Assembly (NCBI GenBank): GCA_963813785.1
Contig: CAWFAJ010000015.1
Coordinates: forward strand, 83,060 to 147,059
DNA length: 64,000 bases
Direction of reading: 5' to 3'
Source: an uncultured delta proteobacterium
Lineage (GTDB): Bacteria > Desulfobacterota > Binatia > Binatales > Binataceae
The number at the start of each line of letters is the position of its first letter. Positions within the stretch are counted from its first letter, which is position 1. Of the stretch, positions 2,223 through 28,465 are shown in pieces. The position numbers and the translations under genes are program-made. The notes beneath the pieces were generated by a model. The model did no database searches and was not told where the DNA came from. It worked only from the letters and a program-made list of their open reading frames with translations.

Positions 2223-2600
2223 ATGGCTGATTCGAACAAACCCGATCCTGATTCCCGGAGCAACGACGACCGGGTCGAGGCGCTCGCCAAAGAGCTCGCC
2301 GACCGGCTGCGCGCGATGCCCAATCGCCAGGAACTCACCGAATACGCCGTCAGCATCCTCAAGGAAAGCAACGAGGATGCGGGCGCGTCGGAGCAGGCGG
2401 CGGCGATGGTCGAGCGGGCGGCGAGGAACGACCCGTTCAACCCGATCGCGTTTGCAATTCCACTGCTGGTTATCGGCGCGATGCTGTGCGCGACGGGAAT
2501 CCTGGCCGGCGTGGGGCTGGGTGTAATCGGGATCGCAGTGCTGATGGTGGTGTGGGGATTGCTCGTTGCGTTCTTCGGCCGCTTCCGCCGACAGGGGTGA
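2223..2600 (+). CDS. Hypothetical membrane protein (acidic N-terminus, two C-terminal TM helices)
   Basis: ORF with hydrophobic C-terminus IPLLVIGAMLCATGILAGVGLGVIGIAVLMVVWGLLVAFFG; no recognisable domain. Confidence 0.4.
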   Translation: MADSNKPDPDSRSNDDRVEALAKELADRLRAMPNRQELTEYAVSILKESNEDAGASEQAAAMVERAARNDPFNPIAFAIPLLVIGAMLCATGILAGVGLGVIGIAVLMVVWGLLVAFFGRFRRQG

Positions 2601-2840
2601 GCAGGAAATTCACTTGATTGAATGTGAAACCCTCGGTGGGTTTCACACTTCCTTCGGCAGGGGCTGAGCCCCTGCACCCGCAGTGAGAAGACGCGAAAAT
2701 CTGCGCAGCGCATCTTTTCGCGACTACGCGATGGAAGAGGTGACCCCGTGCACCGCAGGGGTGAGCCCTGCACCCAGTATTAAGGCTGCGCTCCGTTGTC
2801 GCGCGCGGCCCCTGCCAACGACTCAATACTGCGCTGCCTC
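2601..2840. repeat. Mosaic palindromic intergenic repeat (REP/MITE-like), copy 1
   Basis: Chain of hairpin modules (gtgaaaccc-N5-gggtttcac; gcagggg-ctgag-cccctgc; cgcccgcc-gttg-ggcgggcg-like). The first ~140 bp are near-identical to the reverse complement of 54230-54370; related modules recur at 47934, 48676 and 63320. Confidence 0.7.
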
Positions 2841-3056
2841 CGTTGGACCGCTCGCTTTCATCGGTTCGAGCGCATCGAAATCCCGACTCAGTGAGTCTGG
2901 TATGTTGCAGAGACCGGGCGAAATTAGGTAGGCTTGCGCCGGATTTCAAGCGCGCTTGCGATAGAGCTGCAGAGACTGGAATCTTTTACAGTGCATTTGC
3001 TCAAATTGCGGTGGGCGCCCATGGTGGGCAGCTCCTGGAAATTTTGGTGGTAGCGG

Positions 3057-3830
3057 ATGGCCAAGTTTGACTGGAACGAAACGAAACGCCAGATAACCGA
3101 TTCGCAGGCCTGGCAATCCATATTCAGGCACGGATACGAAGACACGCCGCGCAACCGGATCCTGATGGTGTCCGGCAACGTGTGGCTGCATCTGCATCCG
3201 TCCAAAGTGCAAAAGCATGCGGTGCGCCTGCGCTTCACCTGGTGCATGGGCGGCATCACGTTTTTGCTTTTCCTGGTGACGGTGGTCACCGGCGTGTACC
3301 TGATGTTCTACTATCGGCCGACGGCGGAATACGCCTACGCCGACATGAAGTACCTGGAATTCGACATGCCGTTCGGGATGTTGATGCGCAATATGCATCG
3401 ATGGGCCGCGCACGGAATGGTGATCGCGGTGTGGCTGCATATGTTCCGGGTGTTCATGACGGGCTCGTACAAACCGCCGCGCGAGTTCAACTGGGTGGTG
3501 GGCGTGATCCTGCTGGTGCTGACGCTGCTGCTGTCGTTCACCGGATACCTGTTGCCGTGGGATCAACTTTCCATCTGGGCGGTGACGGTCGGCTCGAACA
3601 TGGCGCGCGCCACGCCGCTGCTTGGGCACGGCGGTCCGTTCCATGAAGTGCTCGGGGTGAATCCGGTTTACGACGCGCGCGCATTTATTTTCGGCGGCGC
3701 GGAAATCGGACCGCACACGCTGCTGCGTTTCTATATTTTGCACTGCATCTTTTTTCCGTTGATCGCGGGCATCTTCATGGCGGTGCACTTCTGGCGAATC
3801 CGCCGCGACGGGATGTCGGGGCCGCTCTAG
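3057..3830 (+). CDS. Cytochrome b, N-terminal haem-binding half (cytochrome b6-like subunit of a bc-type complex)
   Basis: Cytochrome b N-terminal domain signature: WLHLHPSKV...HRWAAHGMVIAVWLHMFRVFMTGSYKPPREFNWVVGVILLVLTLLLSFTGYLLPWDQ with the four His ligands of haems bL and bH. Confidence 0.85.
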   Translation: MAKFDWNETKRQITDSQAWQSIFRHGYEDTPRNRILMVSGNVWLHLHPSKVQKHAVRLRFTWCMGGITFLLFLVTVVTGVYLMFYYRPTAEYAYADMKYLEFDMPFGMLMRNMHRWAAHGMVIAVWLHMFRVFMTGSYKPPREFNWVVGVILLVLTLLLSFTGYLLPWDQLSIWAVTVGSNMARATPLLGHGGPFHEVLGVNPVYDARAFIFGGAEIGPHTLLRFYILHCIFFPLIAGIFMAVHFWRIRRDGMSGPL

Positions 3831-3849
3831 GAGCGGAGGCGGGCGGTCG

Positions 3850-3996
3850 ATGGGAGGCGTATTTTCATGGCTGTTGCACCAGGGAATCGTGCGCGTGCTG
3901 TCGGTGCCGATCGGGATGTCGATCGTGGTTTATATAATGTACGTGCTGGCGGCGCCGCCGCCGTGGAGCGACGACGAGGACGGAGCGCCTCGTTAA
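3850..3996 (+). CDS. Possible small single-TM peptide (48 aa) between the two cytochrome b halves
   Basis: Short ORF MGGVFSWLLHQGIVRVLSVPIGMSIVVYIMYVLAAPPPWSDDEDGAPR, below the 60-aa ORF-track cutoff; hydrophobic core; position typical of small bc-complex subunits. Confidence 0.25.
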   Translation: MGGVFSWLLHQGIVRVLSVPIGMSIVVYIMYVLAAPPPWSDDEDGAPR

Positions 3997-4005
3997 GGGT
4001 TAATC

Positions 4006-4911
4006 ATGGCAAGCCGGGAAGGTAGCGAAGGCGCCGTCGCGATGCGGGCGGCGGGAGCGGGCGCAGGCGGAGCTGCCGCGAGGACGCCGGCCGGGGGCGG
4101 GTCGAAGCGAATCGAAGTTCCGATCAAAAAGGCGGGCGGCGGCGGCGAAGAGAAGCTGCACACCTGGCCGTTTTTGGTGCGCAGCGAATTCCTGATGGCG
4201 ATTCTGGTGATCGTCGTTTTGACGGTGTGGTCGCTGTTGCTCAACGCGCCGTTGGAGCAGCCGTCAAACCCGACTCGCACGCCGAATCCGTCGAAGGCGC
4301 CGTGGTACTTTCTGGGCTTGCAGGAAATGCTGGTGTTCTTCGATCCGTGGTACGCGGGCGTGGTGCTGCCGAGTTTCATTATCGTGGGGCTGATGCTGAT
4401 TCCGTACCTGGACATCAATCCGAAAGGTAACGGTTACTACACGCTGCGCGAGCGAACCTTCGAGATTCTGACTTTTTTCATCGGCTTCCACATTCTATGG
4501 GTCTCGTTCATCATCATCGGCACATTTTTCCGCGGACCCGGATGGAACTGGTTCTGGCCCGGCCAGGTATGGGATCCGCATCTGGTGGAGGCGCTGACCA
4601 ACGTGGATTTGCCGTACATGTTCGGCTTCCGCGATTACCTGGCGTCGGCGCTGTTCGGATTGTCGCTGATAATCGGCTACTTCGTGGTCGGGTACGCGGG
4701 GTTATATTACTGGATACGATCGCGGCCGGCGGGCGATCCATGGTCGGCGTTTCCCGGCGGCGGTCCCGAGATATTGAAGAAATGGGGACCGGTGCGCTTC
4801 GGCATCACGGGATTTCTGCTGATCGCGATGGCCGGGGTGTTTATCAAGATGGCGCTGCGGCACGCGCTCAACATCAAGTACATCCTGGTTACGCCCTGGA
4901 TTAACATCTGA
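4006..4911 (+). CDS. Cytochrome b C-terminal half / subunit IV-like protein of a bc-type complex
   Basis: APWYFLGLQEMLVFF (PEWY-type motif) and multi-TM topology; Gly/Ala-rich N-terminal extension; the true start may be internal. Confidence 0.75.
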   Translation: MASREGSEGAVAMRAAGAGAGGAAARTPAGGGSKRIEVPIKKAGGGGEEKLHTWPFLVRSEFLMAILVIVVLTVWSLLLNAPLEQPSNPTRTPNPSKAPWYFLGLQEMLVFFDPWYAGVVLPSFIIVGLMLIPYLDINPKGNGYYTLRERTFEILTFFIGFHILWVSFIIIGTFFRGPGWNWFWPGQVWDPHLVEALTNVDLPYMFGFRDYLASALFGLSLIIGYFVVGYAGLYYWIRSRPAGDPWSAFPGGGPEILKKWGPVRFGITGFLLIAMAGVFIKMALRHALNIKYILVTPWINI

Positions 4912-4912
4912 C

Positions 4913-5107
4913 GTGGCCGCGACCCCGGTGTTTATCCTCGCCAAAGTACTGCAGGCGCTCGGAATCGCCGACGTCGGCTTCGCGCTGTACGTCGGGATCA
5001 GCCAGCCGCACGGGATGGGGAAAGAATACGAGTTCACCGGCATCGGCATACTGGTTTTTCTCGCCGGCTACATCGTCGAGGTCCTGTGGGCTCGTCCGGG
5101 TGAATGA
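4913..5107 (+). CDS. Small hypothetical membrane protein (64 aa)
   Basis: Two hydrophobic segments; overlaps the previous stop by one codon, suggesting translational coupling. Confidence 0.3.
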   Translation: MAATPVFILAKVLQALGIADVGFALYVGISQPHGMGKEYEFTGIGILVFLAGYIVEVLWARPGE

Positions 5108-5194
5108 CTAGTGAGTATTCGAGTGAGTATTTAAGTGAGTAATTGGACGGCGGCCTCGCGGCGGCATTCGCAGTTTAGGACAGGATAAGAGCAG

Positions 5195-7960
5195 ATGGCT
5201 GGCAGACCAGGGCTTGATCCCACTGAGGAAGGAAAATCATACAGCGCGCTGTTCGTGCTGATGGTGGCGGTGTTGCTCGCGACCGCGGTCTGGTCGATTT
5301 GGGACGACAACATCTCGCGCCGTCCGTGGAAGGAATACCAGGTCCAGTGGGACCGGCTGGCGTACGACAAGTACATGAAGGACGCGGCCGACGAGCAGAA
5401 GCGCCTCGACGCCGATCCCGAATACCAGAAAGTCTCGAAGGATCTGGCCGCGGCGCGCAATGAACGCGACTCCGGCGCCACCGCGGCCAAGCTGGCCGCG
5501 CTGCGCGGACAGTTGACCGATCTGAACAACACCGCCAACGACAAGGATCAACTGGTCCGCTTCACCAAGTCGTATTTGACCGAGCGCTGGTACGACTACA
5601 ACCACGCCGTCCAGGAAAGGGAGGACCCGGGTCCATACAAAAAGGAAATCGATCAGCTGAACGCCGAACTCGCGCAGGAAAGTATCGTCTCCGATAAAGC
5701 GAAGGACAATCTGCAGGCGGTCAAGGATCAGATCGAGGCGCTCAACTCGAAGGTCGACAGCCTGACAGATCAGATGAAGAAGCTTACCGCCAAGCGCGAC
5801 GATTTCCTCGACAAGGCCGACACCTGGATGATCCCGGTCAAGTTCCGCAACACCGTCCTGTTGCGCTATCCGAAGATACCGAAGATTCAGCAGACCGCGA
5901 TCGACGACTTCGACCGCAACGCCTTCGACGAGGCGATCGCGCGGGTCGATCGATGCCAGAGCTGTCATATGGGCGCCGACAAGAAGGGCTTCGAGAATGC
6001 GCCCGAGCCGTTTCGCACGCATAGCAACTTCGATCAGATCATATTGAAGCATCCGCCCGAAAAACTCGGGTGCACGCCATGTCACGACGGACAGGGGCCC
6101 GCGGTCAGCTCGGTGCGGCTGGCGCACGGCGACGATCCGGATTGGGATTCGCCGATGCTCAGGGGCGACAAGATGCAGTCCCGATGCATCAAGTGCCATA
6201 TCGACGTGGGCTCGCTGCACGACGCGGCCGGCAAACCGATCGCGGCGAACTGGGTCGAGGGGGAACGGATGTTCCAGCAGATGGGATGCGCGGGATGCCA
6301 TCTGGTGGCGGGCTACGAGGACATGCCGAAGATCGGCCCGTACCTGAAACTCGCGTCGGCGAAGCTCGACCCGTCGTGGACGGTGCGATGGATCGCCCAA
6401 CCGCACGTCTTCCGGCCGCACAGCCGCATGCCGGACTTCATGTTCTCGCGCGAGCAGGCGACTGCGCTGGCCGCGTTCATCATGGACAGTTCGTCGAAGA
6501 ATTCGAAGGACTGGCTCGCGGCGCATCCCGAGCTGGCGACGCTGGAGGCCGACGTCAAGAATCCGGCATTCGTCGAAGAAGGCAAGGGGCTGTTCGAATC
6601 GGTGGGCTGCAAAGGATGCCATGCGATCGAGCCTGATCAATATGGAACCCCGGTGGGCGTTGCCGAGGGCTTCAAGCCCGCCCAGGCGCGCACGACCAAG
6701 GACTTCGCGCCCAACCTGGGCAGGATCGCGGAGAAGACTTCGGCGGCGTGGATATATGCGTGGTTGAAGAATCCACGTGACTTCTCGCCGCACACGGCGA
6801 TGCCGTCGCTGCGCCTGAGCGATCACGAAGCCGAAGCGCTGACCGCCTTCCTGATGACGCATGGCGAGAAGAAGGACGACGCCGGGGTCGAAACCGCCCT
6901 CAAGGATCCCGAGCAGATCAAGAAGGGCGAAGCGCTGGTGCGCAAGTACGGATGCTTCGGGTGCCACGAGATCGAAGGGATGGACAAGGAGTCGCGAACC
7001 GGCGTCGAGCTGACGACCTTCGGCTCCAAGCATCTCGACGAACTATTTTTCGGCAATCAGACGCAGATACCCGAGACCTGGGATCAGTGGACATTCCACA
7101 AACTCCAAAACCCGCGCATCTACGCGACCAAGGACGTCGAGCAGTTGATGCCGAATTTCGATTTCGACGACGCCGACATCAAGAACCTGGTCGTGTTCCT
7201 GGCCGGGATGACGCAAGGCACGGTGCAGGAGCGGTACCGGATGCCCGGATCGGAGCATCAGACGCAAATCGTCGCGGGCCGGCGAATAGTCAATTACTAC
7301 AACTGCGTCGGCTGCCATATCGTCGAGGATCGCGGCGGTTATATCCGCCGCTTCTACCCGGGAGATGAAATCAACTTTGCGCCGCCAATACTCAATGGCG
7401 AGGGCTTCAAGGTTCAACCCGAGTGGCTATTCGCATTCCTCCAGGGACCGACCCCGATTCGTCCGTGGCTGAAGATCAGGATGCCGACTTTTCATTTCAA
7501 CAACGGTGATGACGACGCGATCGTGAATTACTTCACGGCGCTATCGGACGTGAACGTGGTGTATACCTTCATCGACACCAACCTGATTCCACCGGCTGAG
7601 CTGGCGGCGGGCGCGAAGCTGATGACGAAGGACTACTTCAACTGCTTCAGTTGCCATCAGCAGGGCGACAAGAAGCCTGAGGGACCGCCGTCGGGATGGG
7701 CGCCCGACCTGGCGCTGGCGCATCAGCGGTTGAATCCGGACTGGATACTGAAGTGGATCGCAAATCCGTCGGCGCTACAGCCGGGAACCAAGATGCCGTC
7801 GTACTATCCGGGCGGCCCGGACGACATCCTGGGCGGCAACCAGGACAAGCAGATCCGCGCGGTAACGGACTATATTTTCTGGTTTGGAACTCATCCGGGG
7901 CAGACATTGCCGGGCCAGGTGGCGACGGCGCCGGTGAAAAGCGAAGTGAGTAAGAAGTAA
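5195..7960 (+). CDS. Membrane-anchored octaheme c-type cytochrome with an N-terminal coiled-coil stalk (921 aa)
   Basis: Eight CxxCH motifs (CQSCH, CTPCH, CIKCH, CAGCH, CKGCH, CFGCH, CVGCH, CFSCH), several followed by Met-ligand regions (RMPDF, AMPSL, LMPNF, RMPTF, KMPSY) typical of class-I cytochrome c domains; N-terminal TM helix and a ~170-aa heptad-like charged region. Confidence 0.8.
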   Translation: MAGRPGLDPTEEGKSYSALFVLMVAVLLATAVWSIWDDNISRRPWKEYQVQWDRLAYDKYMKDAADEQKRLDADPEYQKVSKDLAAARNERDSGATAAKLAALRGQLTDLNNTANDKDQLVRFTKSYLTERWYDYNHAVQEREDPGPYKKEIDQLNAELAQESIVSDKAKDNLQAVKDQIEALNSKVDSLTDQMKKLTAKRDDFLDKADTWMIPVKFRNTVLLRYPKIPKIQQTAIDDFDRNAFDEAIARVDRCQSCHMGADKKGFENAPEPFRTHSNFDQIILKHPPEKLGCTPCHDGQGPAVSSVRLAHGDDPDWDSPMLRGDKMQSRCIKCHIDVGSLHDAAGKPIAANWVEGERMFQQMGCAGCHLVAGYEDMPKIGPYLKLASAKLDPSWTVRWIAQPHVFRPHSRMPDFMFSREQATALAAFIMDSSSKNSKDWLAAHPELATLEADVKNPAFVEEGKGLFESVGCKGCHAIEPDQYGTPVGVAEGFKPAQARTTKDFAPNLGRIAEKTSAAWIYAWLKNPRDFSPHTAMPSLRLSDHEAEALTAFLMTHGEKKDDAGVETALKDPEQIKKGEALVRKYGCFGCHEIEGMDKESRTGVELTTFGSKHLDELFFGNQTQIPETWDQWTFHKLQNPRIYATKDVEQLMPNFDFDDADIKNLVVFLAGMTQGTVQERYRMPGSEHQTQIVAGRRIVNYYNCVGCHIVEDRGGYIRRFYPGDEINFAPPILNGEGFKVQPEWLFAFLQGPTPIRPWLKIRMPTFHFNNGDDDAIVNYFTALSDVNVVYTFIDTNLIPPAELAAGAKLMTKDYFNCFSCHQQGDKKPEGPPSGWAPDLALAHQRLNPDWILKWIANPSALQPGTKMPSYYPGGPDDILGGNQDKQIRAVTDYIFWFGTHPGQTLPGQVATAPVKSEVSKK

Positions 7961-8061
7961 GTTGTTATCGTTTAGTCGATTGAGTGGGCAACTGATTATT
8001 CGCTAAGCTGAGAGAGTTTGACGTAACCGGGCAAAACATCCGAGCGATTTCGCAGGAGGAA

Positions 8062-8772
8062 ATGGTAATGAACAAGTTTCGAGTTGTACTGGCAGCGTGT
8101 GCGGGTGTCGCGCTCAGCATGACCGCTGGCGCCAGCCTTGCGAGCGCTGCCGGCGGCACGATTAGCGGAACCGTCAAGTACGATGGTACGCCGCCCGCAC
8201 CCAGGAAGGTCGAGGTGACGAAGGACAAGGACGTATGCGCGCTGCATCCGCACTTCGACGAGGAGCTGATCGTTGACAGCGGCGGCGGAATCGCGAACGC
8301 GGTTGTGATCGTGAAAGGCGCCAAGGGCGACCTGAAGCCCGGCGACGTAAAGTTCGACCAGAAGGGATGTGACTACACGCCGCACGTGCTCGCGTTTGAG
8401 GCGGGCAGCACCGTGGATATCATCAACTCGGACGGGATTCTGCACAACATCCATACCTATTCGACCAAGAATCCGCCGTTCAACATGGCTCAGCCCAAGT
8501 TCAAGAAGGTAATCCAACGAAAGATCGATCAGCCGGAAGTGTTCAAGGTCAGCTGCGATGCGCACGGCTGGATGCATGCATGGTGGTACTCGACCGACAC
8601 TCCATACTTCGCGGTGACGGACGACAAGGGCAACTATTCGATCGCAGGCGTGCCGCCGGGCAACTACACCGTTGAAGTGTGGCAGGAAAAGCTCGGCACG
8701 GAGGATCAGAAAGCTGAGGTGAAAGACGGCGCGACGGCGACGACCAATTTCTCGTTGAAGCCGAAGGGCTGA
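8062..8772 (+). CDS. Secreted cupredoxin-like (type-1 copper) protein with an Ig-like/CarbopepD_reg-like C-terminal domain
   Basis: Signal peptide (VVLAACAGVALSMTAGASLASA); candidate T1-Cu ligands H(ILHNIH)...C-D-A-H-G-W-M (CxxHxxM); AGGAGG RBS 6 nt upstream. Confidence 0.5.
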   Translation: MVMNKFRVVLAACAGVALSMTAGASLASAAGGTISGTVKYDGTPPAPRKVEVTKDKDVCALHPHFDEELIVDSGGGIANAVVIVKGAKGDLKPGDVKFDQKGCDYTPHVLAFEAGSTVDIINSDGILHNIHTYSTKNPPFNMAQPKFKKVIQRKIDQPEVFKVSCDAHGWMHAWWYSTDTPYFAVTDDKGNYSIAGVPPGNYTVEVWQEKLGTEDQKAEVKDGATATTNFSLKPKG

Positions 8773-8797
8773 GCGCTACGATGCGACGACAGGAGTC

Positions 8798-8830
8798 GCG
8801 GGGCTGGAGCAATCCAGCCCCGTTTTTCTT
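8798..8830 (+). terminator. Rho-independent terminator after the cupredoxin gene
   Basis: GC stem gcggggctgga-gcaa-tccagcccc followed by gttttt. Confidence 0.6.
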
Positions 8831-8880
8831 TGCAACAATTTAACTTTTCACTATTCACCGGCAGGATAGAATCCGCAGCG

Positions 8881-16020: not shown

Positions 16021-16363
16021 AAGATATAAAAACCTCCTCTTCCCCGACTTGCCGTTGTAGCCCAAACATTTGCTGCCGCCAATCTCGCGCCAATGGCTGA
16101 TCGCCGGACCCGCGGCCGATGCGATCATGGGACCACGAAGCACTTGAATTAACTATCGAAATGCAAATATTATGGGCGGCCATTAAGCGAGCGTTTCGGT
16201 GAATCAACAAAGTTTTTTCATTCCACTGATCGCTGTGCTGACGGGCATAATCACACTCAGTTCATGAATCGGAAGGCGTTGGAACGTTGCATCAGCCGCC
16301 TTGATCGGCGCGGCGAATGCTCGTCCGGAATTTGCACATTGGCAGCGCAGAGGTGACGCTTCG

Positions 16364-17059
16364 ATGCTGGAGCATCTGTATTTTCCGCACGACATCTCGA
16401 CCTTCGGCCCCAAGATCGATTTCCTCTTTGAGCTGATCTTCTGGATCGTGCTGGTCGTTTGGACCGCGGTGATGATCACGATGGTGGTCTTCATGATTCG
16501 CTATCGCGCCCGGCCCGGCCGCAAGGCGGAATATATTGAAGGCAATTCGCGTCTCGAGATCATCTGGACCACCGCGACCGCGGCGATCCTGATCGTTCTG
16601 GCGTTTATGAGCCGCTCGACGTGGGCTGATATCAAGGAGCATGGACCTCCCGGGGATGTGTTCTACGCGGTGACCGGCAAGCAGTTCAACTGGGAAATCA
16701 CTTATCCGGGGCCCGACGGCAAACTCGGCACCAAGGATGACATCATCGTCGAGAACGAGCTGCACGTGCCGGTCAACAAAGTGGTGCGGATCGATCTCAC
16801 CTCGAAAGACGTCATCCACAGTTTTTACGTGCCGAACATGCGACTGAGGCAGGACGCGGTACCCGGCCGCATCATCCACGTCTGGTTCGAAGCGACCGAA
16901 ACCGGGCAATACGAAATTCCGTGCTCGCAGCTGTGCGGCTTCGGCCATTCGGGAATGAAGGGCAATCTGACGGTCCAGTCGCAGGAGGATTTCGACAAGT
17001 GGCTCAAAGACCTGAATGCCAACCCGCCCCCGCCGCCCGAAGGAGCTAGCCCAAAATGA
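16364..17059 (+). CDS. coxB: Cytochrome c oxidase subunit II (CuA, no fused cytochrome c domain)
   Basis: Two N-terminal TM helices, CuA ligands H...CSQLCGFGHSGM; Pro-rich C-terminus without CxxCH. Confidence 0.9.
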   Translation: MLEHLYFPHDISTFGPKIDFLFELIFWIVLVVWTAVMITMVVFMIRYRARPGRKAEYIEGNSRLEIIWTTATAAILIVLAFMSRSTWADIKEHGPPGDVFYAVTGKQFNWEITYPGPDGKLGTKDDIIVENELHVPVNKVVRIDLTSKDVIHSFYVPNMRLRQDAVPGRIIHVWFEATETGQYEIPCSQLCGFGHSGMKGNLTVQSQEDFDKWLKDLNANPPPPPEGASPK

Positions 17060-18822
17060 GCAGCGCAGCAGCGGTTGCGGCACACGGCGCTCACGCGGAG
17101 CCTCATGCGCTCGGCTTTTGGCGCACCTATATCTTCTCTGAAGATCACAAGATGATCGGCAAGCAGTTCCTGTTCATGGCGCTGTTCATGATGTCGATCG
17201 GCGGCCTGATGGCGATGCTGATGCGGTGGGAACTGGCGTGGCCGGAGACCCAGGTGCCTGGATTTGGCTGGGTGCCCGAACCGTTCATGTACGAGGGCGC
17301 GATTCCGCCCAATACCTACAACGCGATGTTCACGATGCACGCCACGATCATGATCTTCTTCGTGGTGATGCCGATCCTGGTCGGATGTTTCGGCAACTTC
17401 CTCATCCCGCTGATGATCGGCGCGCGCGACATGGCGTTCCCCAAGCTGAACATGCTGTCGTTCTGGACCGGCGCGGTCGCGGGCGTGATCCTGCTTTCCT
17501 CGTTCTTCGTGACCGGCGGTCCCGCGGCCGCGGGATGGACCTCGTACGCGCCACTGAGCGCGGTGCCAATCTACACCGGCGTCGATTGGGGCCAGAACTT
17601 ATGGTGCATCAGCATCATCGTGCTCGGCGCGTCGTCGCTGATGGGCTCGATCAACTACATCACCACGATCATCAACATGCGCACCAAGGGGATGTACTTC
17701 TTCCGCCTGCCGCTGACGATCTGGTCGCTGTTCATCACCGCGGTTCTGCTGCTGCTCGCGCTGCCGGTGCTGACGACGGCGATTGCGCTGCTGCTGTTCG
17801 ATCGCCTGGGCGGAACCCATTTCTTTCTGCCCGCGGGCGGCGGAGAGCCGCTGCTGTGGCAGCATCTGTTCTGGTTTTTCGGCCATCCCGAGGTCTACAT
17901 CATGATCCTGCCCGCGATGGGGATCGCCTCCGAGGTCATCTCGACGTTTTCGCGCAAGCCCATATTCGGATACCGCGCGATGGCGTATGCGATGATCGCG
18001 ATCGCGTTCCTGTCGTGGATCGTGTGGGGCCATCACATGTTCGTGTCGGGGATGGATCCGGTACTCGGCAGCAGTTTCATGATCACCACGATGATCATCG
18101 GAGTGCCGTCGGCGATTAAGACTTTCAACTGGCTGGGCACGCTCTACAAGGGCAACATCCATTACACCACCGCGATGCTGAACGCGCTGGCCTTCGTCGC
18201 GATGTTCGTGATCGGCGGGATGTCGGGAATCTGGATGGCGTGCACGCCGGTGGACATGTACATCCACGATACTTACTTCATCGTCGCCCATATTCACTAC
18301 GTACTATTCGGCGGCAGCCTGTTCGGGATCTTCGCGGGAATTACCTATTGGTATCCCAAGATGTTCGGCCGCATGATGAGCGAGACGCTGGGCAAGATTC
18401 ACTTCTGGATCACCTTCGTGTCGTTCAATTGCACCTTCTTCCCGATGCACATCCTGGGGATGGCGGGACACATGCGCCGGATTTACAATCCGCAGCAGTA
18501 CGATTTTCTGAAGCCGATCATCCCGATTAACGAATTTATTTCCATCAGTGCTTTCGTGCTTGGCGCCGCGCAGTTCCTGCTGCTCGCGAATATCATCTGG
18601 AGCTATTTCAAGGGCGCCAAGGCCACCGAGAATCCGTGGCACGCCAATACTCTGGAGTGGACGACGCCTTCGCCGCCGCCGCACGGCAACTGGCCCGGGA
18701 CGGTGCCGATCGTTTACCGTGGACCGTACGAATACAGCTCGGGTGAGGTTGCGGAGGATTATCTGCCGCAATCGCAGTTGCTCGAACACTCGACGGGCGC
18801 GGCCGAAAGGCGATCGCACTAA
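17056..18822 (+). CDS. coxA: Cytochrome c oxidase subunit I
   Basis: 12-TM haem-copper oxidase subunit I with canonical His ligands (WFFGHPEVYIMILPAMG...HHMFVSGM...HDTYFIVAHIHYVLFGG); overlaps coxB by 4 nt. Confidence 0.95.
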   Translation: MSSAAAVAAHGAHAEPHALGFWRTYIFSEDHKMIGKQFLFMALFMMSIGGLMAMLMRWELAWPETQVPGFGWVPEPFMYEGAIPPNTYNAMFTMHATIMIFFVVMPILVGCFGNFLIPLMIGARDMAFPKLNMLSFWTGAVAGVILLSSFFVTGGPAAAGWTSYAPLSAVPIYTGVDWGQNLWCISIIVLGASSLMGSINYITTIINMRTKGMYFFRLPLTIWSLFITAVLLLLALPVLTTAIALLLFDRLGGTHFFLPAGGGEPLLWQHLFWFFGHPEVYIMILPAMGIASEVISTFSRKPIFGYRAMAYAMIAIAFLSWIVWGHHMFVSGMDPVLGSSFMITTMIIGVPSAIKTFNWLGTLYKGNIHYTTAMLNALAFVAMFVIGGMSGIWMACTPVDMYIHDTYFIVAHIHYVLFGGSLFGIFAGITYWYPKMFGRMMSETLGKIHFWITFVSFNCTFFPMHILGMAGHMRRIYNPQQYDFLKPIIPINEFISISAFVLGAAQFLLLANIIWSYFKGAKATENPWHANTLEWTTPSPPPHGNWPGTVPIVYRGPYEYSSGEVAEDYLPQSQLLEHSTGAAERRSH

Positions 18823-18828
18823 CAGCGA

Positions 18829-19824
18829 ATGAGTCAGTTGCAGTTGTCAGCCGGGGATGAGAAGACGCGCGGATTGCATCGCTTTGCGGTGCTGACCGCG
18901 GGGGCTACTTTTTGCCTCATCTTCGTCGGCGGACTTGTCACCTCGACGGGTTCCGCACTTGCTGTTCCGGACTGGCCGCTGGCGTTCGGCAAACTCATTC
19001 CGGCGTGGGAGGGCGGCGTCCGTTTCGAATTCGGCCATCGCCTGGCTGCCGGAACAGTCGTAGTTCTTACGCTGGTGCTGATGGCGTGGGCATGGCGCAC
19101 GGAGCCGCGGCGATGGGTCCGCAAACTTGTGGTGCTGGCGTTCCTGCTGATCGTCGTGCAGGCCGTGCTTGGCGGAATCACAGTGCTGTTCGAGTTGCCG
19201 CTGGCCATCGCGGTTGCGCACGCCGCCACGGCTCAGGCGCTGTTGTGCCTGATGGTATCGATCGCCATTTTCACCAATCCGCGCTGGAGCACGACCCCGC
19301 ACGTCGATGATCCGCCGTCACGATTCCCGCTGCCTGCGCTGGCCGCCGCGATGACCGCCGTCATTTACCTGCAAATTCTGATCGGCGCGGTGATGCGGCA
19401 CATGAGCGCCGGGCTGGTGATCCCCGATTTTCCGCTGTCGTTCGGCCGTTTGGCGCCGCCGTACTGGGACGAGTACATCGCGGTTAATTTTGCGCATCGA
19501 TGCGGTGCGGTGGTTGTCACCGCGATGGTTTTGTGGACGGTGGCGCGCGTGCTGCGGACGCATCGCGAGGTTGGCGCGCTTCGCCGTCCCGCGGTCGGCT
19601 TGTTGATTCTGCTGGTTATCCAGATTTGTCTCGGTGCGATCACAATCTGGAGCGGGCGCGCGGTGCTCCCGACGACCAGCCACGTCGCGCTCGGCGCCGC
19701 AGTCCTGGCGACCAGCCTGACGCTGACCCTTCGTGCATATCGCATCCTCGGAGCGCCGCCTCGCGTCCATGCGATCGAGTCGCATGCGAGTCCGCGCGCA
19801 ATCGAACGGCAGGTGACCGCGTGA
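18829..19824 (+). CDS. ctaA: Haem A synthase (CtaA/COX15 family)
   Basis: 8-TM protein with His pairs in TM helices (FGHRLAAG..., HAATAQALL...). Confidence 0.8.
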   Translation: MSQLQLSAGDEKTRGLHRFAVLTAGATFCLIFVGGLVTSTGSALAVPDWPLAFGKLIPAWEGGVRFEFGHRLAAGTVVVLTLVLMAWAWRTEPRRWVRKLVVLAFLLIVVQAVLGGITVLFELPLAIAVAHAATAQALLCLMVSIAIFTNPRWSTTPHVDDPPSRFPLPALAAAMTAVIYLQILIGAVMRHMSAGLVIPDFPLSFGRLAPPYWDEYIAVNFAHRCGAVVVTAMVLWTVARVLRTHREVGALRRPAVGLLILLVIQICLGAITIWSGRAVLPTTSHVALGAAVLATSLTLTLRAYRILGAPPRVHAIESHASPRAIERQVTA

Positions 19825-20726
19825 ATGCCAGAGTGGCGACCGCTGAATCTGCGCTTACGCTGCCGCACGGCCGCGTCAGCGATTATTTCGAACTGACCAA
19901 GCCGCGCATTGTTCTGATGGTGCTGGTCACGACGCTGGCCGGTTTCTATCTGGGTGGGCGCACCGGATTCGATGTTACGCTCGCGCTCAATCTGCTGGCG
20001 GGTACGGCGTTGGCAGCCGGCGGGACGCTGGCGCTCAATCAGTACGTCGAGCGCGACACCGACGCCATGATGGACCGCACGCGCCATCGTCCGCTGCCCG
20101 ACCTGAGGATGCGCCCGGCCGAAGCGCTGGTGTTCGGCGTCGGCGCGACGGCCGCCGGGCTGGTTTACCTGACGCTCGCGACCAACATTCCGTGCGCCGT
20201 GGTGATCGCCGCAATCACCACCATTTATCTCGGCGTGTACACTCCGCTGAAGCGATATACCTGGATGTGCAACGTCGTCGGCGCGGTTTCCGGCGCTCTC
20301 CCCCCAGTGGCGGGATGGGCGGCGGCGCGTGGCGGCCTCGGGTTGGAGCCTATCGTGCTTTTCGCGATCATGTTCCTGTGGCAACTGCCGCATACGTTTG
20401 CGGTCGCGCGGCTCTTCCGCATCGACTACGCACGCGCCGGCATCCGGCTGCTTCCGGATGATACCGCGCGCGGCGGAAATCCTTCGAATCTGGTCGTGAT
20501 TGCGGGCTGCCTCGGACTCGTCGCGGTGGGAATCATCCCGACCATGCTTGGCTTCGCTGGAATCCCTTACATGGTAATTGCCTCCGCGCTTGGCCTTGGC
20601 ATGTTGATGTTTGGATTTGCGATGATCCGTTCGCCCGGTAATACGCGGGCGGCGCGCCGGGTGTTGCTCGCGTCGCTGGTTTATTTGCCCATCGTGTGGC
20701 TGGTGCTCGTGCTGGATCGCGTGTGA
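19821..20726 (+). CDS. ctaB: Protohaem IX farnesyltransferase (haem O synthase)
   Basis: UbiA-family motifs (NQYVERDTDAMMDRTRHRPLP, WQLPHTFAVA); GTG start overlaps the ctaA stop. Confidence 0.85.
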   Translation: MNARVATAESALTLPHGRVSDYFELTKPRIVLMVLVTTLAGFYLGGRTGFDVTLALNLLAGTALAAGGTLALNQYVERDTDAMMDRTRHRPLPDLRMRPAEALVFGVGATAAGLVYLTLATNIPCAVVIAAITTIYLGVYTPLKRYTWMCNVVGAVSGALPPVAGWAAARGGLGLEPIVLFAIMFLWQLPHTFAVARLFRIDYARAGIRLLPDDTARGGNPSNLVVIAGCLGLVAVGIIPTMLGFAGIPYMVIASALGLGMLMFGFAMIRSPGNTRAARRVLLASLVYLPIVWLVLVLDRV

Positions 20727-20857
20727 GAACCGCCGTGGCCGGCCTGGTTAAACGCGACGAGCGCCAAGAGGGCATCCGGCGGACGCTGAAGATACTGGTC
20801 GGCGTGATGGTTCTGCTGGTAGCGGTCTCACTCGTGACGATTCTGGTGAAGCATTGA
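20723..20857 (+). CDS. Possible small TM peptide (44 aa) between ctaB and coxC
   Basis: GTG start overlapping the ctaB stop (GTGTGA); VRTAVAGLVKRDERQEGIRRTLKILVGVMVLLVAVSLVTILVKH; below the ORF-track cutoff. Confidence 0.3.
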   Translation: MRTAVAGLVKRDERQEGIRRTLKILVGVMVLLVAVSLVTILVKH

Positions 20858-20858
20858 T

Positions 20859-21518
20859 ATGGCGCGCAGCGTGACAGCATCCACCGCGAAAGTAATTCCG
20901 CTGGTGGCGCCGAGCCGGCGCGTGCGGCCGTCCGACTCGAGCGCGGGCGGCGATCAGAGCGAGCGTCCCTTCATCAGCAGCGCGATGCTCGCGATCATGA
21001 TGTTGATCGCGGCGGAGATGATGCTGTTCAGCGGTCTCATCGGCTCATTCCTGATCTTCCGCCTCCAAGCCGCCTTCTGGCCGCCGCCGGCCCTGCCGCG
21101 CCTGCCGATCGCGGTCACCTGGGTGAACACCTTCGTGCTGTTATCGAGCGCGCTCACGATGACGCTCGCGCTGCGCGCGGTGCATCGCAGCCGCCAGCGC
21201 CTGCTGCGCCGTTATCTATTGGCAACGCTCGCGCTTGGCGTGACGTTTCTTGCGGTGCAGGGCAGCGAATGGGTGCGGCTGGTCGCGCACGGCCTAAAGC
21301 TTTCCAGCGGCGTGTACGGAGGCACCTTTTATTTGCTGATCGGATGCCACGGCGCGCACGTGACGGCCGGGGTCATTTGGCTCGCGTGCGTGGCGATGGC
21401 TGCGATGGGCGGCAGGTACAACGCGCGCAACGCCGGCGGGATTGAGGTATGCGCGGTGTACTGGTATTTCGTCTGCGCGGTCTGGCCGCTGCTGTTTGGG
21501 CTCGTATATCTGATGTAG
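20859..21518 (+). CDS. coxC: Cytochrome c oxidase subunit III
   Basis: Subunit-III C-terminal signature FYLLIGCHGAHVTAGVIWL...YWYFVCAVWPLLFGLVYLM. Confidence 0.8.
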   Translation: MARSVTASTAKVIPLVAPSRRVRPSDSSAGGDQSERPFISSAMLAIMMLIAAEMMLFSGLIGSFLIFRLQAAFWPPPALPRLPIAVTWVNTFVLLSSALTMTLALRAVHRSRQRLLRRYLLATLALGVTFLAVQGSEWVRLVAHGLKLSSGVYGGTFYLLIGCHGAHVTAGVIWLACVAMAAMGGRYNARNAGGIEVCAVYWYFVCAVWPLLFGLVYLM

Positions 21519-21527
21519 TTCCCGGGC

Positions 21528-21818
21528 GTGGGGAAAAACGCGGAAGTGAAAAAAATGAAAAATAGAAACCTCAAGGCCGCGGCCATAACGATGGCCAGTG
21601 CGATTGTCGCGGCGGCCCCGCGGCTGGCGAACGCGTGCGCCTCCTGCGGGCTGTCGGAGGACAGTCACGCGCTCCACGCGTACAAGGCCAGCACGCTGTT
21701 CCTGATGATGTCGCCGTACGCCTCGTTTGCCGCGATCGGCGGGATTAGTTACTTCGTTTATCGGCGATCGATCCGCCAGGATCGGAACTCCGCTCCTCCG
21801 ACGATCGAGAAGCGCTGA
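21528..21818 (+). CDS. Hypothetical small membrane protein with CASCG motif
   Basis: Signal/TM-like N-terminus, CASCGLSEDSHALHAY, C-terminal TM helix; inside the oxidase operon. Confidence 0.3.
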   Translation: MGKNAEVKKMKNRNLKAAAITMASAIVAAAPRLANACASCGLSEDSHALHAYKASTLFLMMSPYASFAAIGGISYFVYRRSIRQDRNSAPPTIEKR

Positions 21819-21878
21819 TCGGCGGCGAGGATAGTCATTTCAAGTGAGTACTGCCTATAGCTATTTGCCCCGAAGAGG

Positions 21879-22511
21879 ATGGTTGCGATGAGCGAGGCCG
21901 CTGCAGTAGAGACCCACGATCACGGCGCGCTACACGCCGATCAGTTAGAACCGTCACTTACGCCGGGAAATCTCGGCAAGCTCGGGATGTGGACGTTCCT
22001 GGCCGGCGACGCGATGACTTTCGGCGCCGGAATCGCAGCCTACGGTGCGCTGCGCATCGACAATCCCAACTGGCCGACACCCGCCGACTACCTCGGCATC
22101 ACCACCACCGCGATAATGACCTTCATCCTGATCTGCTCGAGCGTCACGATGGTCGAGGCGCTCGACGGCGTTCAACACGGGATGCAGTCGAAGTTCCAGA
22201 TGTTCATGGCGCTTACCGTCCTCGGCGGGCTCCTGTTCCTTGGGATGCAGGCGTTTGAGTGGCATCACTTGATCGTCGAAAGAGGCATGTCCATCCAGCG
22301 CGACCTGTTCGACGCGAGCTTCTTCATCCTGACCGGTTTTCACGGCTGTCACGTTTTCGGCGGCGTGGTGTACAACAGCGTGCTGCTGATTCGCGGGAGG
22401 ATGGGCAAGATACCGCAGTCGAAAGCCGGGCTGGTCGAGATCGCGGGCCTGTACTGGCACTTCGTTGACCTGGTCTGGATACTGATCTTCACCTTCATCT
22501 ACCTGATTTAG
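21879..22511 (+). CDS. Cytochrome c oxidase subunit III paralog
   Basis: FFILTGFHGCHVFGGVVYNSVLL...YWHFVDLVWILIFTFIYLI, the same family as 20859-21518. Confidence 0.75.
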   Translation: MVAMSEAAAVETHDHGALHADQLEPSLTPGNLGKLGMWTFLAGDAMTFGAGIAAYGALRIDNPNWPTPADYLGITTTAIMTFILICSSVTMVEALDGVQHGMQSKFQMFMALTVLGGLLFLGMQAFEWHHLIVERGMSIQRDLFDASFFILTGFHGCHVFGGVVYNSVLLIRGRMGKIPQSKAGLVEIAGLYWHFVDLVWILIFTFIYLI

Positions 22512-27235: not shown

Positions 27236-27547
27236 GCGCGAATCCTAATCAACTGTTGACACGGCGCTCAAGCCGCGTAGTGTTCATTGAGATTCGCCCG
27301 GGGAAGCCGGTGAGAGACCGGCGCTGCCCCGCAACTGTAAGTTGAGCGTCGCGAGAGAGTCGCGGCGCTCGTCGAGTCAGGCGACCGGGTGAATCGATGG
27401 AGCCGAGAGAACCTTCGCGGGAGAGGGAGGCTTCAGGAGTCTTTTCAGCGACTACTGCCGGCGCCGTACTGCCGCGTAGTCGTCCGTCGCTCCTGGCCGC
27501 TTCCATCTTCCGTCCGCGAAGTTTCGGCCCGGCCGGGTATCGACACG

Positions 27548-28465
27548 ATGTTCGACGGACATCATAAAGAGGAAGTTTCAGTGACGCGGAATTGCTTCGC
27601 GCCACGGCGAAGAAAACCCAACGCGGCCGGCGTGGGCGCGATTCCGGAACTTTCCTACGATGCGACCGGGCCGCGCCCGAGTCGTCATGTGGCGTCGTTT
27701 GCAGCTTCGATAGCGGCTCACGCGGCGATTGTCGGTTTGATCGTGTGTTTTGCGGCGCCGGTGGCCACGGCGCCTGGCGATTGGGTTCTCGCCTATCTCG
27801 TCGAAGGGGCAGATGGCGCTGCCGGACGCGGCGGCGCGCGCGCTGGCGCGTCCGAGGCTCCGTCGATTCCCGCGCCGCCGCGTTCGGCACCGCCGCGGGC
27901 CGCTCGCAAACCGCGTCGCCGCGTTGAAGAACCGGATTCCGAAGTCGCCAGTCTGGCGCCGGTGCGCTCGGTCGCGCTCGCGCGATCGGCAGATTCAGAG
28001 CATGACGAGCACTCGCACAATCCTGATGATTCACCGGGGATCGCGTCTGGCTCTTTTTCGGCGACCGTTGCCGGCATCGGCGCCGACGGCACCGCCGCGG
28101 GACCAGGCGCCGGATCGGCGGTTGGCGCCGACAACGGCAATGGCGGCGGCGGCGACGGTGGCGATCCAAATTCGATCGCCCACGCCGATTACGCGGCAAA
28201 TCCGCCCCCCGCTTATCCGGCGATCGCGCGGCGACGTGCGCAGCAGGGCACCGTGACGGTCAGGGTGCTGGTCGGCGCCGACGGCTCCGTGGAGCGCGCC
28301 GAAGTTGCGGATTCGTCGGGCTTCGACGCGCTCGACGACGCTGCGCTGGAAACAGTTCGGTCGCGATGGCGCTTTGTGCCGGCCCGCCACGGCGGAGCTG
28401 CCGTCGAGAGCTGGGTCCTGGTGCCGATACGCTTTGCTTTGATCGAGGCCAACGCTACCCGTTGA
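27548..28465 (+). CDS. TonB-family energy transducer
   Basis: N-terminal TM anchor (ASFAASIAAHAAIVGLIVCFAAPV), Pro/Ala-rich spacer, C-terminal TonB domain (YPAIARRRAQQGTVTVRVLVGADGSVERAEVADSSG...WRFVPA). Confidence 0.65.
   Translation: MFDGHHKEEVSVTRNCFAPRRRKPNAAGVGAIPELSYDATGPRPSRHVASFAASIAAHAAIVGLIVCFAAPVATAPGDWVLAYLVEGADGAAGRGGARAGASEAPSIPAPPRSAPPRAARKPRRRVEEPDSEVASLAPVRSVALARSADSEHDEHSHNPDDSPGIASGSFSATVAGIGADGTAAGPGAGSAVGADNGNGGGGDGGDPNSIAHADYAANPPPAYPAIARRRAQQGTVTVRVLVGADGSVERAEVADSSGFDALDDAALETVRSRWRFVPARHGGAAVESWVLVPIRFALIEANATR

Follow-up and report, generated by a model that had tools for sequence, protein, structure and literature searches.

Gene content of the cluster

The 64-kb window analysed here (the whole stretch, taken from contig CAWFAJ010000015.1 of assembly GCA_963813785.1) carries on its + strand, at positions 2223–8833, a cluster of genes for a split cytochrome b, small membrane proteins, an octahaem cytochrome c and a secreted copper protein. 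We consider it likely that this cluster encodes the membrane core and the electron-exit branch of a b6f-like Rieske/cytochrome b complex, an analogue of complex III, in Candidatus Binatus (Binataceae, Binatales, Binatia, Binatota). The octahaem protein has homologues with 66–95% identity in metagenome-assembled genomes (MAGs) of Candidatus Binataceae/Binatus and with about 50% identity in other Binatia, and homologues of the copper protein carry the NCBI name Candidatus Binatus sp. For comparison we used a set of 85 loci gathered around octahaem homologues.

The cytochrome b6-type subunit (257 amino acids (aa); 3057–3830) matches PF00033 in Pfam (E = 6.8e−44). Its four haem ligands are invariant and align as two pairs, H114/H128 and H229/H244, with the ligands of b6, forming two bis-His haem b sites; equally invariant is C63 (C63-M-G-G), the CxGG cysteine that is the site for covalent haem cn. 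When compared with the PDB, the b6 chains of b6f complexes were the best solved relatives (E = 1e−49, versus about 1e−27 for long cytochrome b), identity to a chloroplast b6 sequence was 47%, and the protein ends in ...SGPL, as in true b6. NCBIfam scores were 271.5 bits for ExtP (cut-off 290) and 202 bits for the cytochrome b6 model (cut-off 325). The subunit-IV-like protein (301 aa; 4006–4911) contains the sequence APWYFL, with the Qo motif APWY, and matches PF00032 (E = 1.8e−6), b6f subunit IV in the PDB (E = 0.0016) and, in NCBIfam, ExtQ (54.6 bits, cut-off 150) and the b6f subunit IV model (19.9 bits, cut-off 127). Its predicted hydrophobic transmembrane (TM) segments number 5–6, its N-terminus is extended by low-complexity sequence, and an insertion of 11 residues was found by group comparison to be specific to Binataceae. 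The b6 and subunit IV genes are separate in all 80-plus loci. A division into one half with four haem histidines and another with APWYFL had been described in a first-pass annotation of this DNA; both halves are present, and the split is natural.

Three small membrane proteins accompany this core. Between the two cytochrome b halves lies an open reading frame (ORF) for a 48-aa peptide (3850–3996) with one predicted TM helix, which had been listed as possible and proves to be real and conserved: tblastn matches occur in 57 loci, all of Binataceae type, and blastp between genera gives E values of 1e−13 to 1e−19. It is probably a small subunit specific to Binataceae. In contrast, a two-TM ORF just downstream of subunit IV (4913–5107; 59–64 aa depending on whether 4913 or 4928 is taken as the start) is conserved in all lineages, being found in 82 loci with E = 3e−11 to L002 by tblastn and 1e−13 to 1e−23 across lineages by blastp. 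Substitutions in the small ORFs are enriched at third codon positions, pointing to conservation at the protein level. The third, a 125-aa protein (2223–2600) with a soluble helical N-terminus and a hydrophobic C-terminal membrane segment, has no match in Pfam or NCBIfam; it resembles a 115-aa gene located 5′ of the Rieske gene in L002 (tblastn, E = 6e−9) and has homologues in L001, L002 and L005 (blastp, E = 1e−11 to 1e−44). Relatives have its homologue immediately 5′ of the Rieske gene, and in the ancestral operon it is the conserved first gene. The first-pass annotation had passed over both the two-TM ORF and the 125-aa protein. The two peptides of 48 and ~60 aa, perhaps together with the 125-aa protein, may serve as small subunits in the membrane or assist assembly.

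The membrane-anchored octahaem cytochrome c (921 aa; 5195–7960) was assigned by Pfam to Cytochrom_C (E = 8.8e−34), Cytochrome_CBB3, Cytochrome_C7 and c3, and all eight of its CxxCH motifs are invariant among 65 homologues. Three of them (residues 254, 293 and 331) belong to a trihaem c7-like region, where H276, H286 and H311 are invariant as well; the other five (365, 472, 587, 704 and 817) define class-I domains, each with an invariant Met-Pro pair (M412, M536, M652, M763 and M867). This ligand set suggests three bis-His and five His/Met haems. The NCBIfam model ExtS covers residues 345–552 only (61 bits, cut-off 100). An N-terminal TM helix is followed by a helical coiled-coil region at residues 44–209; in the AlphaFold2 (AF2) model, with a mean predicted local distance difference test (pLDDT) score of 71.7, helices span residues 9–41, 44–72, 75–92, 94–140 and 146–209, ahead of a beta-hairpin. 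The eight motifs, the Met-liganded class-I domains and the TM helix were thus all found as first annotated. Of the ~170-residue heptad-like stalk also proposed there, the helical character holds over residues 44–209, and the heptad signal peaks in residues 150–210. A Foldseek search of the model against the PDB gave no significant match, and the best non-significant ones were antiparallel coiled-coil hairpins (Smc arms, p85 iSH2, HlyD, EnvC). We read the "stalk" as a region that may fold back as a hairpin of roughly 9–10 nm and bring the haem domains to the membrane surface again, within reach of a Rieske head, a reading that rests on secondary structure rather than on coordinates. The 88-bp gap just 5′ of the octahaem gene holds 2.7 copies of a 12-nt tandem repeat, AGTGAGTATTCA (5110–5141).

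The last gene encodes a secreted copper protein (8062/8068–8772; 236 or 234 aa). Its start is likely at 8068, as the homologues are 234 aa long. The ligands H128, C165, H168 and M171 (C165-x2-H168-x2-M171) are invariant in two sets of 75 and 58 homologues, and so are C59 and C103. Pfam detects only a C-terminal CarboxypepD_reg domain in the window protein itself; across the family, 18/40 members match Copper-bind and 8/40 match Cupredoxin_1, and the family profile finds blue copper protein (E = 1e−3) and amicyanin (E = 5e−3) in the PDB. The AF2 model (pLDDT 83) was matched by Foldseek to pseudoazurin, plastocyanin and amicyanin (E = 1.6e−5 to 5e−4, probability 1.00), with CuA domains also among the probability-1.00 matches, at TM-scores of 0.55–0.71 relative to the target and 15–24% sequence identity. 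It is divided into a type-1 cupredoxin domain (about 90–177) and a CarboxypepD_reg-like beta-sandwich (178–233). The JGI name for the family is plastocyanin. The protein is, by the fold of its predicted model, a secreted two-domain cupredoxin. An intrinsic terminator at 8798–8833, made of an 11-bp stem with 8 GC pairs and then TTTTCTTT, marks the operon end, and both the CxxHxxM cupredoxin and the clean terminator of the first-pass annotation are borne out.

About 8 kb downstream lies the aa3-type cytochrome oxidase operon (16301–22511, + strand; Pfam and NCBIfam), with genes for CoxB, CoxA, CtaA, CtaB and two CoxIII-like proteins. CoxB scores 168 bits in NCBIfam, above the cut-off, and has the CuA motif CSQLCGFGHSGM and no CxxCH, which agrees with the earlier description of subunit II as free of cytochrome c. 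The link between module and oxidase that was suggested there gains support from synteny, for at L005, a sister-lineage locus on the same contig as L068, the copper protein gene is directly followed by the cox operon. The aa3 oxidase is the probable electron sink of the module. The CuA motif of the window CoxB (16301–17059) contains a Gln where most subunit II sequences have Glu, and the CoxB ORF as listed starts with TTG, well 5′ of the first Met. The two CoxIII-like genes (219 and 210 aa; 20859–22511) have a 96-aa ORF between them, an arrangement shared with L005.

Location of the Rieske gene and surroundings of the cluster

Neither tblastn nor a scan for the motif CxH...CxxH detected a Rieske gene anywhere in the 64-kb window, and the 457-bp spacer (2601–3056) between the 125-aa gene and cytochrome b showed no Rieske remnant with either of them. 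The absence of a Rieske gene from the neighbourhood, as first annotated, therefore extends to the full window. At the same time, every non-Binataceae locus with upstream DNA (L002, L003, L005/L068, L069–L073, L077–L080, L083, L084 and L090) has a Rieske gene (PF00355, 172–202 aa) directly 5′ of cytochrome b, so that the gene order reads small membrane protein, Rieske, cytochrome b, subunit IV, two-TM ORF, octahaem, copper protein. The 457-bp spacer sits exactly where these relatives have the Rieske gene. Among about 55 Binataceae loci, none has one within 10 kb. Because octahaem and Rieske coexist in the ancestral operon, the octahaem is no Rieske substitute and would be the counterpart of cytochrome c1/f, and the idea that it stands "in place of" the Rieske protein has to be given up.

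Orphan Rieske genes came to light when metagenome contigs were scanned with an alignment of Rieske proteins whose lead sequence was that of L005; clusters containing the exact sequences of the orphan and its neighbours were then looked up. The scan yielded loci at 0.60–0.61 GC (Binataceae range, 0.58–0.635) with intact Rieske genes of 203 or 193 aa and no cytochrome b alongside; in Binataceae the orphan is single-copy. The cluster at 90% identity that contains the 203-aa form has 750 members. NCBI gives the name Candidatus Binatus sp. to the proteins encoded next to this form: MGA6971431.1, secreted and 147 aa long, the alpha/beta hydrolase MGA6971433.1, and EF-P. This neighbourhood (efp, UPF0020 methyltransferase, PD40/Tricorn beta-propeller, 145-aa protein, Rieske, hydrolase, EthD, AidB) keeps its order on at least 10 of the 23 contigs carrying the identical Rieske. 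The 193-aa form (P0578) lies on a contig of 3,269,263 bp (ERZ25039512 contig_15707) that also carries a Rieske-less operon (L001/L046): the Rieske locus spans 1,706,908–1,727,489, with the gene at about 1.717 Mb, and the operon locus 2,162,170–2,184,926 (about 2.17 Mb), which places the two about 455 kb apart on the same strand. The orphans retain the Tat motif, the TM anchor and the cluster-binding boxes CTHLGC and CPCHGSGY; Box II of Binatia Rieskes is CPCHGSGY or CPCHGSGF, and the best NCBIfam match is PetC, below cut-off. Neighbour-joining groups the orphans in a single clade, whose place in the tree is inside the Binatia Rieskes encoded in operons. The simplest reading of these sequences is that the Rieske orthologue was relocated, not lost, in the Binataceae ancestor. 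The first-pass label of a "Rieske-less" complex fails at the genome level, since Binataceae genomes encode the orthologous Rieske elsewhere.

Other Rieske sequences were considered and set aside. A protein search with the L002 Rieske gave, among its best 120 matches, only sequences at least 79% identical and of the operon-encoded type, with no Binataceae Rieske among them. Five candidates were rejected as the Binataceae Rieske: P0268 (planctomycete-like and operon-encoded), P0243 (an orphan beside TatA, but in DNA of 70% GC), P0269 (on a short contig not from Binataceae), P0279 (operon-encoded) and P0267 (a frameshifted operon copy). P0243 itself (L087, 6530–7114) is a distant orphan Rieske, 54% identical to the L002-type operon Rieske, whose neighbours are a signal peptidase gene on one side and tatA on the other, with a DegP-like protease coming next. 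Four Binatia-like contigs of lower GC (0.52–0.56; L121, L125, L127 and L142) carry orphan Rieskes of the same family, with no cytochrome b in the 1.2–5.9 kb downstream, and relocation or duplication of the Binatia-type Rieske may have taken place more than once.

Constraint on the cytochrome b has persisted alongside this change of gene order. The window protein is 91% identical to the Rieske-linked L005 orthologue, and only four differences, all conservative, are fixed between Binataceae and Rieske-linked cytochromes b; the p-side (Qo-side) loops and the APWY loop are identical between the two groups. Divergence within Binataceae is 3.8% for cytochrome b and 23.5% for the octahaem, a ratio of 0.165 versus 0.294 in the Rieske-linked group. 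Judged by these patterns of substitution, selection on cytochrome b is very strongly purifying and was not relaxed in Binataceae.

The vacated junction is an insertion hot spot. In other Binataceae genomes the gap between the 125-aa gene and cytochrome b ranges from 206 bp to 6 kb, in some cases with unrelated cargo; inserts of 2–6 kb between the 125-aa homologue and cytochrome b occur in L014, L015, L018, L019, L025, L037, L062 and L075, and the cargo includes a type IIG-like N6 DNA (restriction-modification) methylase (L037, 2405–5380) and FG-GAP/ASH-Ig surface proteins (L037, 5908–7572; L015, 4199–7066). In the window, the spacer contains hairpins and a GC-rich element of ~55–60 nt (GGGGTGAGCCCTGCACCC...; 2755–2816), of which blastn found several copies at unrelated places in Binatus loci (L029, 7210–7263 and 7324–7377; L006, 3763–3824; L028, 20815–20844; L016, 19925–19954; L058, 5614–5666; L037, 2289–2355). 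It looks like a small dispersed repeat of the repetitive extragenic palindromic (REP) or miniature inverted-repeat transposable element (MITE) kind. The last ~170 nt of the spacer (2890–3056) are conserved 5′ of cytochrome b (blastn) and probably hold a promoter and leader. A promoter scan of the cluster gave signals no stronger than expected from shuffled sequence, and an Rfam scan found no match inside it.

On its 5′ side the cluster is preceded by the end of secD, a small helix-turn-helix (HTH) gene and a methyltransferase gene, and on its 3′ side it is followed by genes for a glyoxalase, an acyltransferase, FTR1, a 3-hydroxyacyl-CoA dehydrogenase, GreA and an acyl-CoA ligase; the remaining genes of the window are housekeeping genes. 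The methyltransferase gene (1561–2179), whose relatives are of the Methyltransf_11/25 type, has a +1 frameshift near 1690, and its orthologue is single-frame in L029, L007 and L010, so that the break reflects either a pseudogene or an assembly indel error. Further downstream, a cobalamin riboswitch (Rfam RF00174, 48.7 bits; 27301–27386) lies directly 5′ of a gene for a TonB C-terminal domain protein (27389–28465), and a 1339-aa protein (32924–36943) combines TPR repeats with the PIN domain of the TPR-GreAB-C-PIN system (PF20698), adjoining an ABC-F ATPase encoded on the opposite strand. Several contigs and proteins with a Binatia-type cluster (L080, L077, L002 and L064; P0511 and P0548) carry odd public labels (Verrucomicrobiia, Syntrophobacteraceae, Alphaproteobacteria, Thermodesulfobacteriota, Limnocylindrales, Acidoferrales) and probably represent mis-binned or mis-labelled MAG contigs.

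Proposed electron path and alternative readings

In the path that we propose, quinol would be oxidised at a Qo site built by cytochrome b6 and the subunit-IV-like protein (APWY), and one electron would pass to a high-potential-type Rieske protein, encoded at a distant locus in Binataceae. From there it would enter the membrane-anchored octahaem, travelling through the three bis-His haems first and then through the five His/Met class-I haems, and would leave by way of the secreted cupredoxin to the CuA site of the cytochrome-c-less aa3 oxidase. The second electron would be recycled via haems bL, bH and cn, as in the Q cycle. What the sequences show is the gene content, the residues that bind the cofactors, the fold of the cupredoxin, the synteny, and that genomes of the same family have the Rieske gene at a distant site; how the subunits assemble, which way the electrons flow and that they go from octahaem through cupredoxin to oxidase are inferences.

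Several points weigh against this proposal. The relocated Rieske gene was found in congeners and in one confamilial genome rather than in the window's own genome. AF2 confidence is low in the trihaem region of the octahaem. The cupredoxin, instead of shuttling, could be permanently attached as a subunit. Finally, APWY-type complexes may run in reverse (Kao and Hunte, PMC4122944), and the direction given above is a tentative one.

The same components also allow a more elaborate arrangement, which we put forward tentatively and rate as rather unlikely. The octahaem, counted here as three low-potential-type and five high-potential-type haems, would form together with the dedicated two-domain cupredoxin a hard-wired hub that tethers the bc core to the aa3 oxidase in a cytochrome-c-free bc-Cu-aa3 supercomplex, perhaps also fed by periplasmic dehydrogenases of these predicted methylotrophs. 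The 48-aa peptide and the changes in subunit IV would then be adaptations to the assembly of a distantly encoded Rieske.

The main surviving rival keeps the complex and changes its direction or role, so that periplasmic dehydrogenases, such as those of methylotrophy, would supply electrons to the cupredoxin and the octahaem, which would hand them on to the oxidase, or uphill via a reversed bc complex into the quinone pool. Besides the proposal of reverse running (PMC4122944), it draws on the amicyanin-like C-x2-H-x2-M ligand loop, on the prediction that Binatota are methylotrophs already equipped with alternative complex III (ACIII) as quinol oxidase (PMC8262859), and on the eight haems, which exceed the needs of a simple c1 equivalent. 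We nevertheless judge it unlikely. In the sister lineage the operon runs directly into the cox genes; the Box II S-Y/S-F signatures, rated high or mid-plus potential (PMC4122944), fit forward flow to oxygen; and at none of the loci does the cluster have a dehydrogenase gene linked to it.

A truly Rieske-independent cytochrome b/multihaem complex, in which Qo electrons go straight to an octahaem haem without bifurcation, as proposed for the Geobacter Cbc-type, and the orphan Rieske serves another partner, seems to us improbable. The same octahaem co-occurs with a Rieske in every sister lineage examined, the cytochrome b that is so close to its Rieske-linked orthologue has kept its p-side loops unchanged under even stronger constraint, and the genomes concerned conserve an intact orthologous Rieske with no other cytochrome b beside it. 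These observations outweigh, in our view, the uniform lack of a Rieske within 10 kb of the Binataceae loci, the appearance of the 48-aa TM peptide and the subunit-IV insertion in the same lineage, and the origin of NCBIfam's nearest curated families in the Geobacter Ext cluster.

It is very improbable that the 921-aa protein is a periplasmic multihaem enzyme of the nitrite or hydroxylamine type, with the cytochrome b genes as just its anchor: the number of haems and weak Pfam matches to c554 and DmsE-type families speak for it, but all eight motifs are standard CxxCH, each with an invariant distal His or Met-Pro available and no open coordination site, class-I cytochrome c of the ordinary kind accounts for five of the domains, and comparison with Pfam, NCBIfam and the PDB brought up nothing of the HAO or NrfA type, so that the ligand set excludes an enzymatic role and identifies an electron-transfer cytochrome. 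An assembly error that broke a single cytochrome b gene in two, for which only the apparent frameshift nearby in the methyltransferase gene (about 1690) could be cited, is ruled out for practical purposes by the stop after the b6-like ...SGPL end, the conserved ORF in between and the fresh start, repeated in all 80-plus loci from independent assemblies, and by the identity of the split with the b6/subunit IV architecture of solved b6f complexes.

Significance and comparison with known systems

As a member of the Rieske/cytochrome b family (the "APWY clade") the complex is a variant not described before; in principle it is ordinary, and its interest lies in the c-type subunit and the copper partner. 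Our search of the literature on Binatia with Rieske proteins, or on Rieske-less cytochrome b/multihaem complexes, found no description of the Binatia complex, and a genomic survey of Binatota lists only ACIII, with no mention of a b6f-like complex (PMC8262859). What is distinctive of Binatia is the coiled-coil-anchored 3+5-haem cytochrome, the operon-encoded two-domain cupredoxin, the extended subunit IV, the lineage-specific small subunits and, in Binataceae, the relocated Rieske. These abundant uncultured bacteria of soil and peat would thus carry, besides ACIII, a b6f-like complex III with an octahaem and a copper partner. The cluster provides a concrete subunit list, usable for expression or purification, for the never-characterised APWY group, and a clean natural case in which the Rieske gene left the operon while the complex was kept under strong selection. 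It also advises caution, as local gene context alone is no basis for calling complexes "Rieske-less".

The features of the Rieske/cytochrome b superfamily are found here: a four-helix bundle with two His pairs, a variant of the Qo motif and a genome-encoded Rieske (in congeners and a confamilial genome). With cytochrome b6f (PetB/PetD/PetC/PetA) the complex shares the four-helix b6 with the CxGG cysteine for haem cn, the separate subunit IV and a b6f-type Rieske, whereas PetA and equivalog-level scores are lacking. In place of cytochrome f there is a TM-anchored octahaem, the Qo motif is APWY instead of PEWY, subunit IV has 5–6 TM segments instead of 3, and the small subunits are unrelated. 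The electron acceptor of b6f is likewise a cupredoxin, plastocyanin, although the Binatia protein is fused to a beta-sandwich domain; and in cyanobacteria, too, the Rieske gene is unlinked to petB-petD. Unlike b6f, the Binatia module has a non-photosynthetic host and a link to an aa3 oxidase.

Kao and Hunte (2014, PMC4122944) distinguish six major Qo patterns, among them APWY, and rate the Rieske partners of APWY cytochromes b as mid-plus to high in potential; no APWY-type complex has been biochemically characterised (PMC4122944). The Binatia complex shares the motif, and its membership in the clade is inferred from that motif rather than from a joint phylogeny. The survey did not include Binatota and describes no octahaem subunit, cupredoxin partner or relocated Rieske (PMC4122944). 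The Rieske/cytochrome b complexes of anammox bacteria and planctomycetes (PMC12954380; PMC5600118) similarly combine a short b6-type cytochrome b, subunit IV and Rieske with large multihaem or otherwise unusual subunits in one operon. The extra subunits of the anammox complexes are NAD(P)-binding FeS or HAO-like proteins, in contrast to the octahaem and cupredoxin of Binatia, and none of the anammox and planctomycete complexes has a cupredoxin or an aa3-oxidase link. A planctomycete-like operon was seen in L086 (8001–16201), with a Rieske that has a 220-aa low-complexity N-terminus, a cytochrome b6, a 447-aa subunit-IV-like protein and a 1604-aa protein without a Pfam match.

The curated models that score highest in NCBIfam are those of the Geobacter proteins ExtP for cytochrome b, ExtQ for subunit IV and ExtS for a portion of the cytochrome c (NF040969–71), but they come from a different context, a selenite/tellurite reduction operon, and the Binatia scores all remain below the cut-offs. 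With no equivalog-level Ext match, and because sister lineages encode an orthologous Rieske in cis and Binataceae encode it in trans, the Geobacter Cbc-type comparison drawn in the first-pass annotation is the wrong frame; a b6f-like Rieske/cytochrome b complex of the described APWY clade fits instead. The octahaem has the CxxCH motifs and distal ligands of c-type cytochromes, and the copper protein has the predicted fold and the His/Cys/His/Met ligands of type-1 cupredoxins such as amicyanin, pseudoazurin and plastocyanin, with the C-x2-H-x2-M spacing of amicyanin. From all three it is set apart by its C-terminal CarboxypepD_reg-like domain and its location in a bc-type operon.

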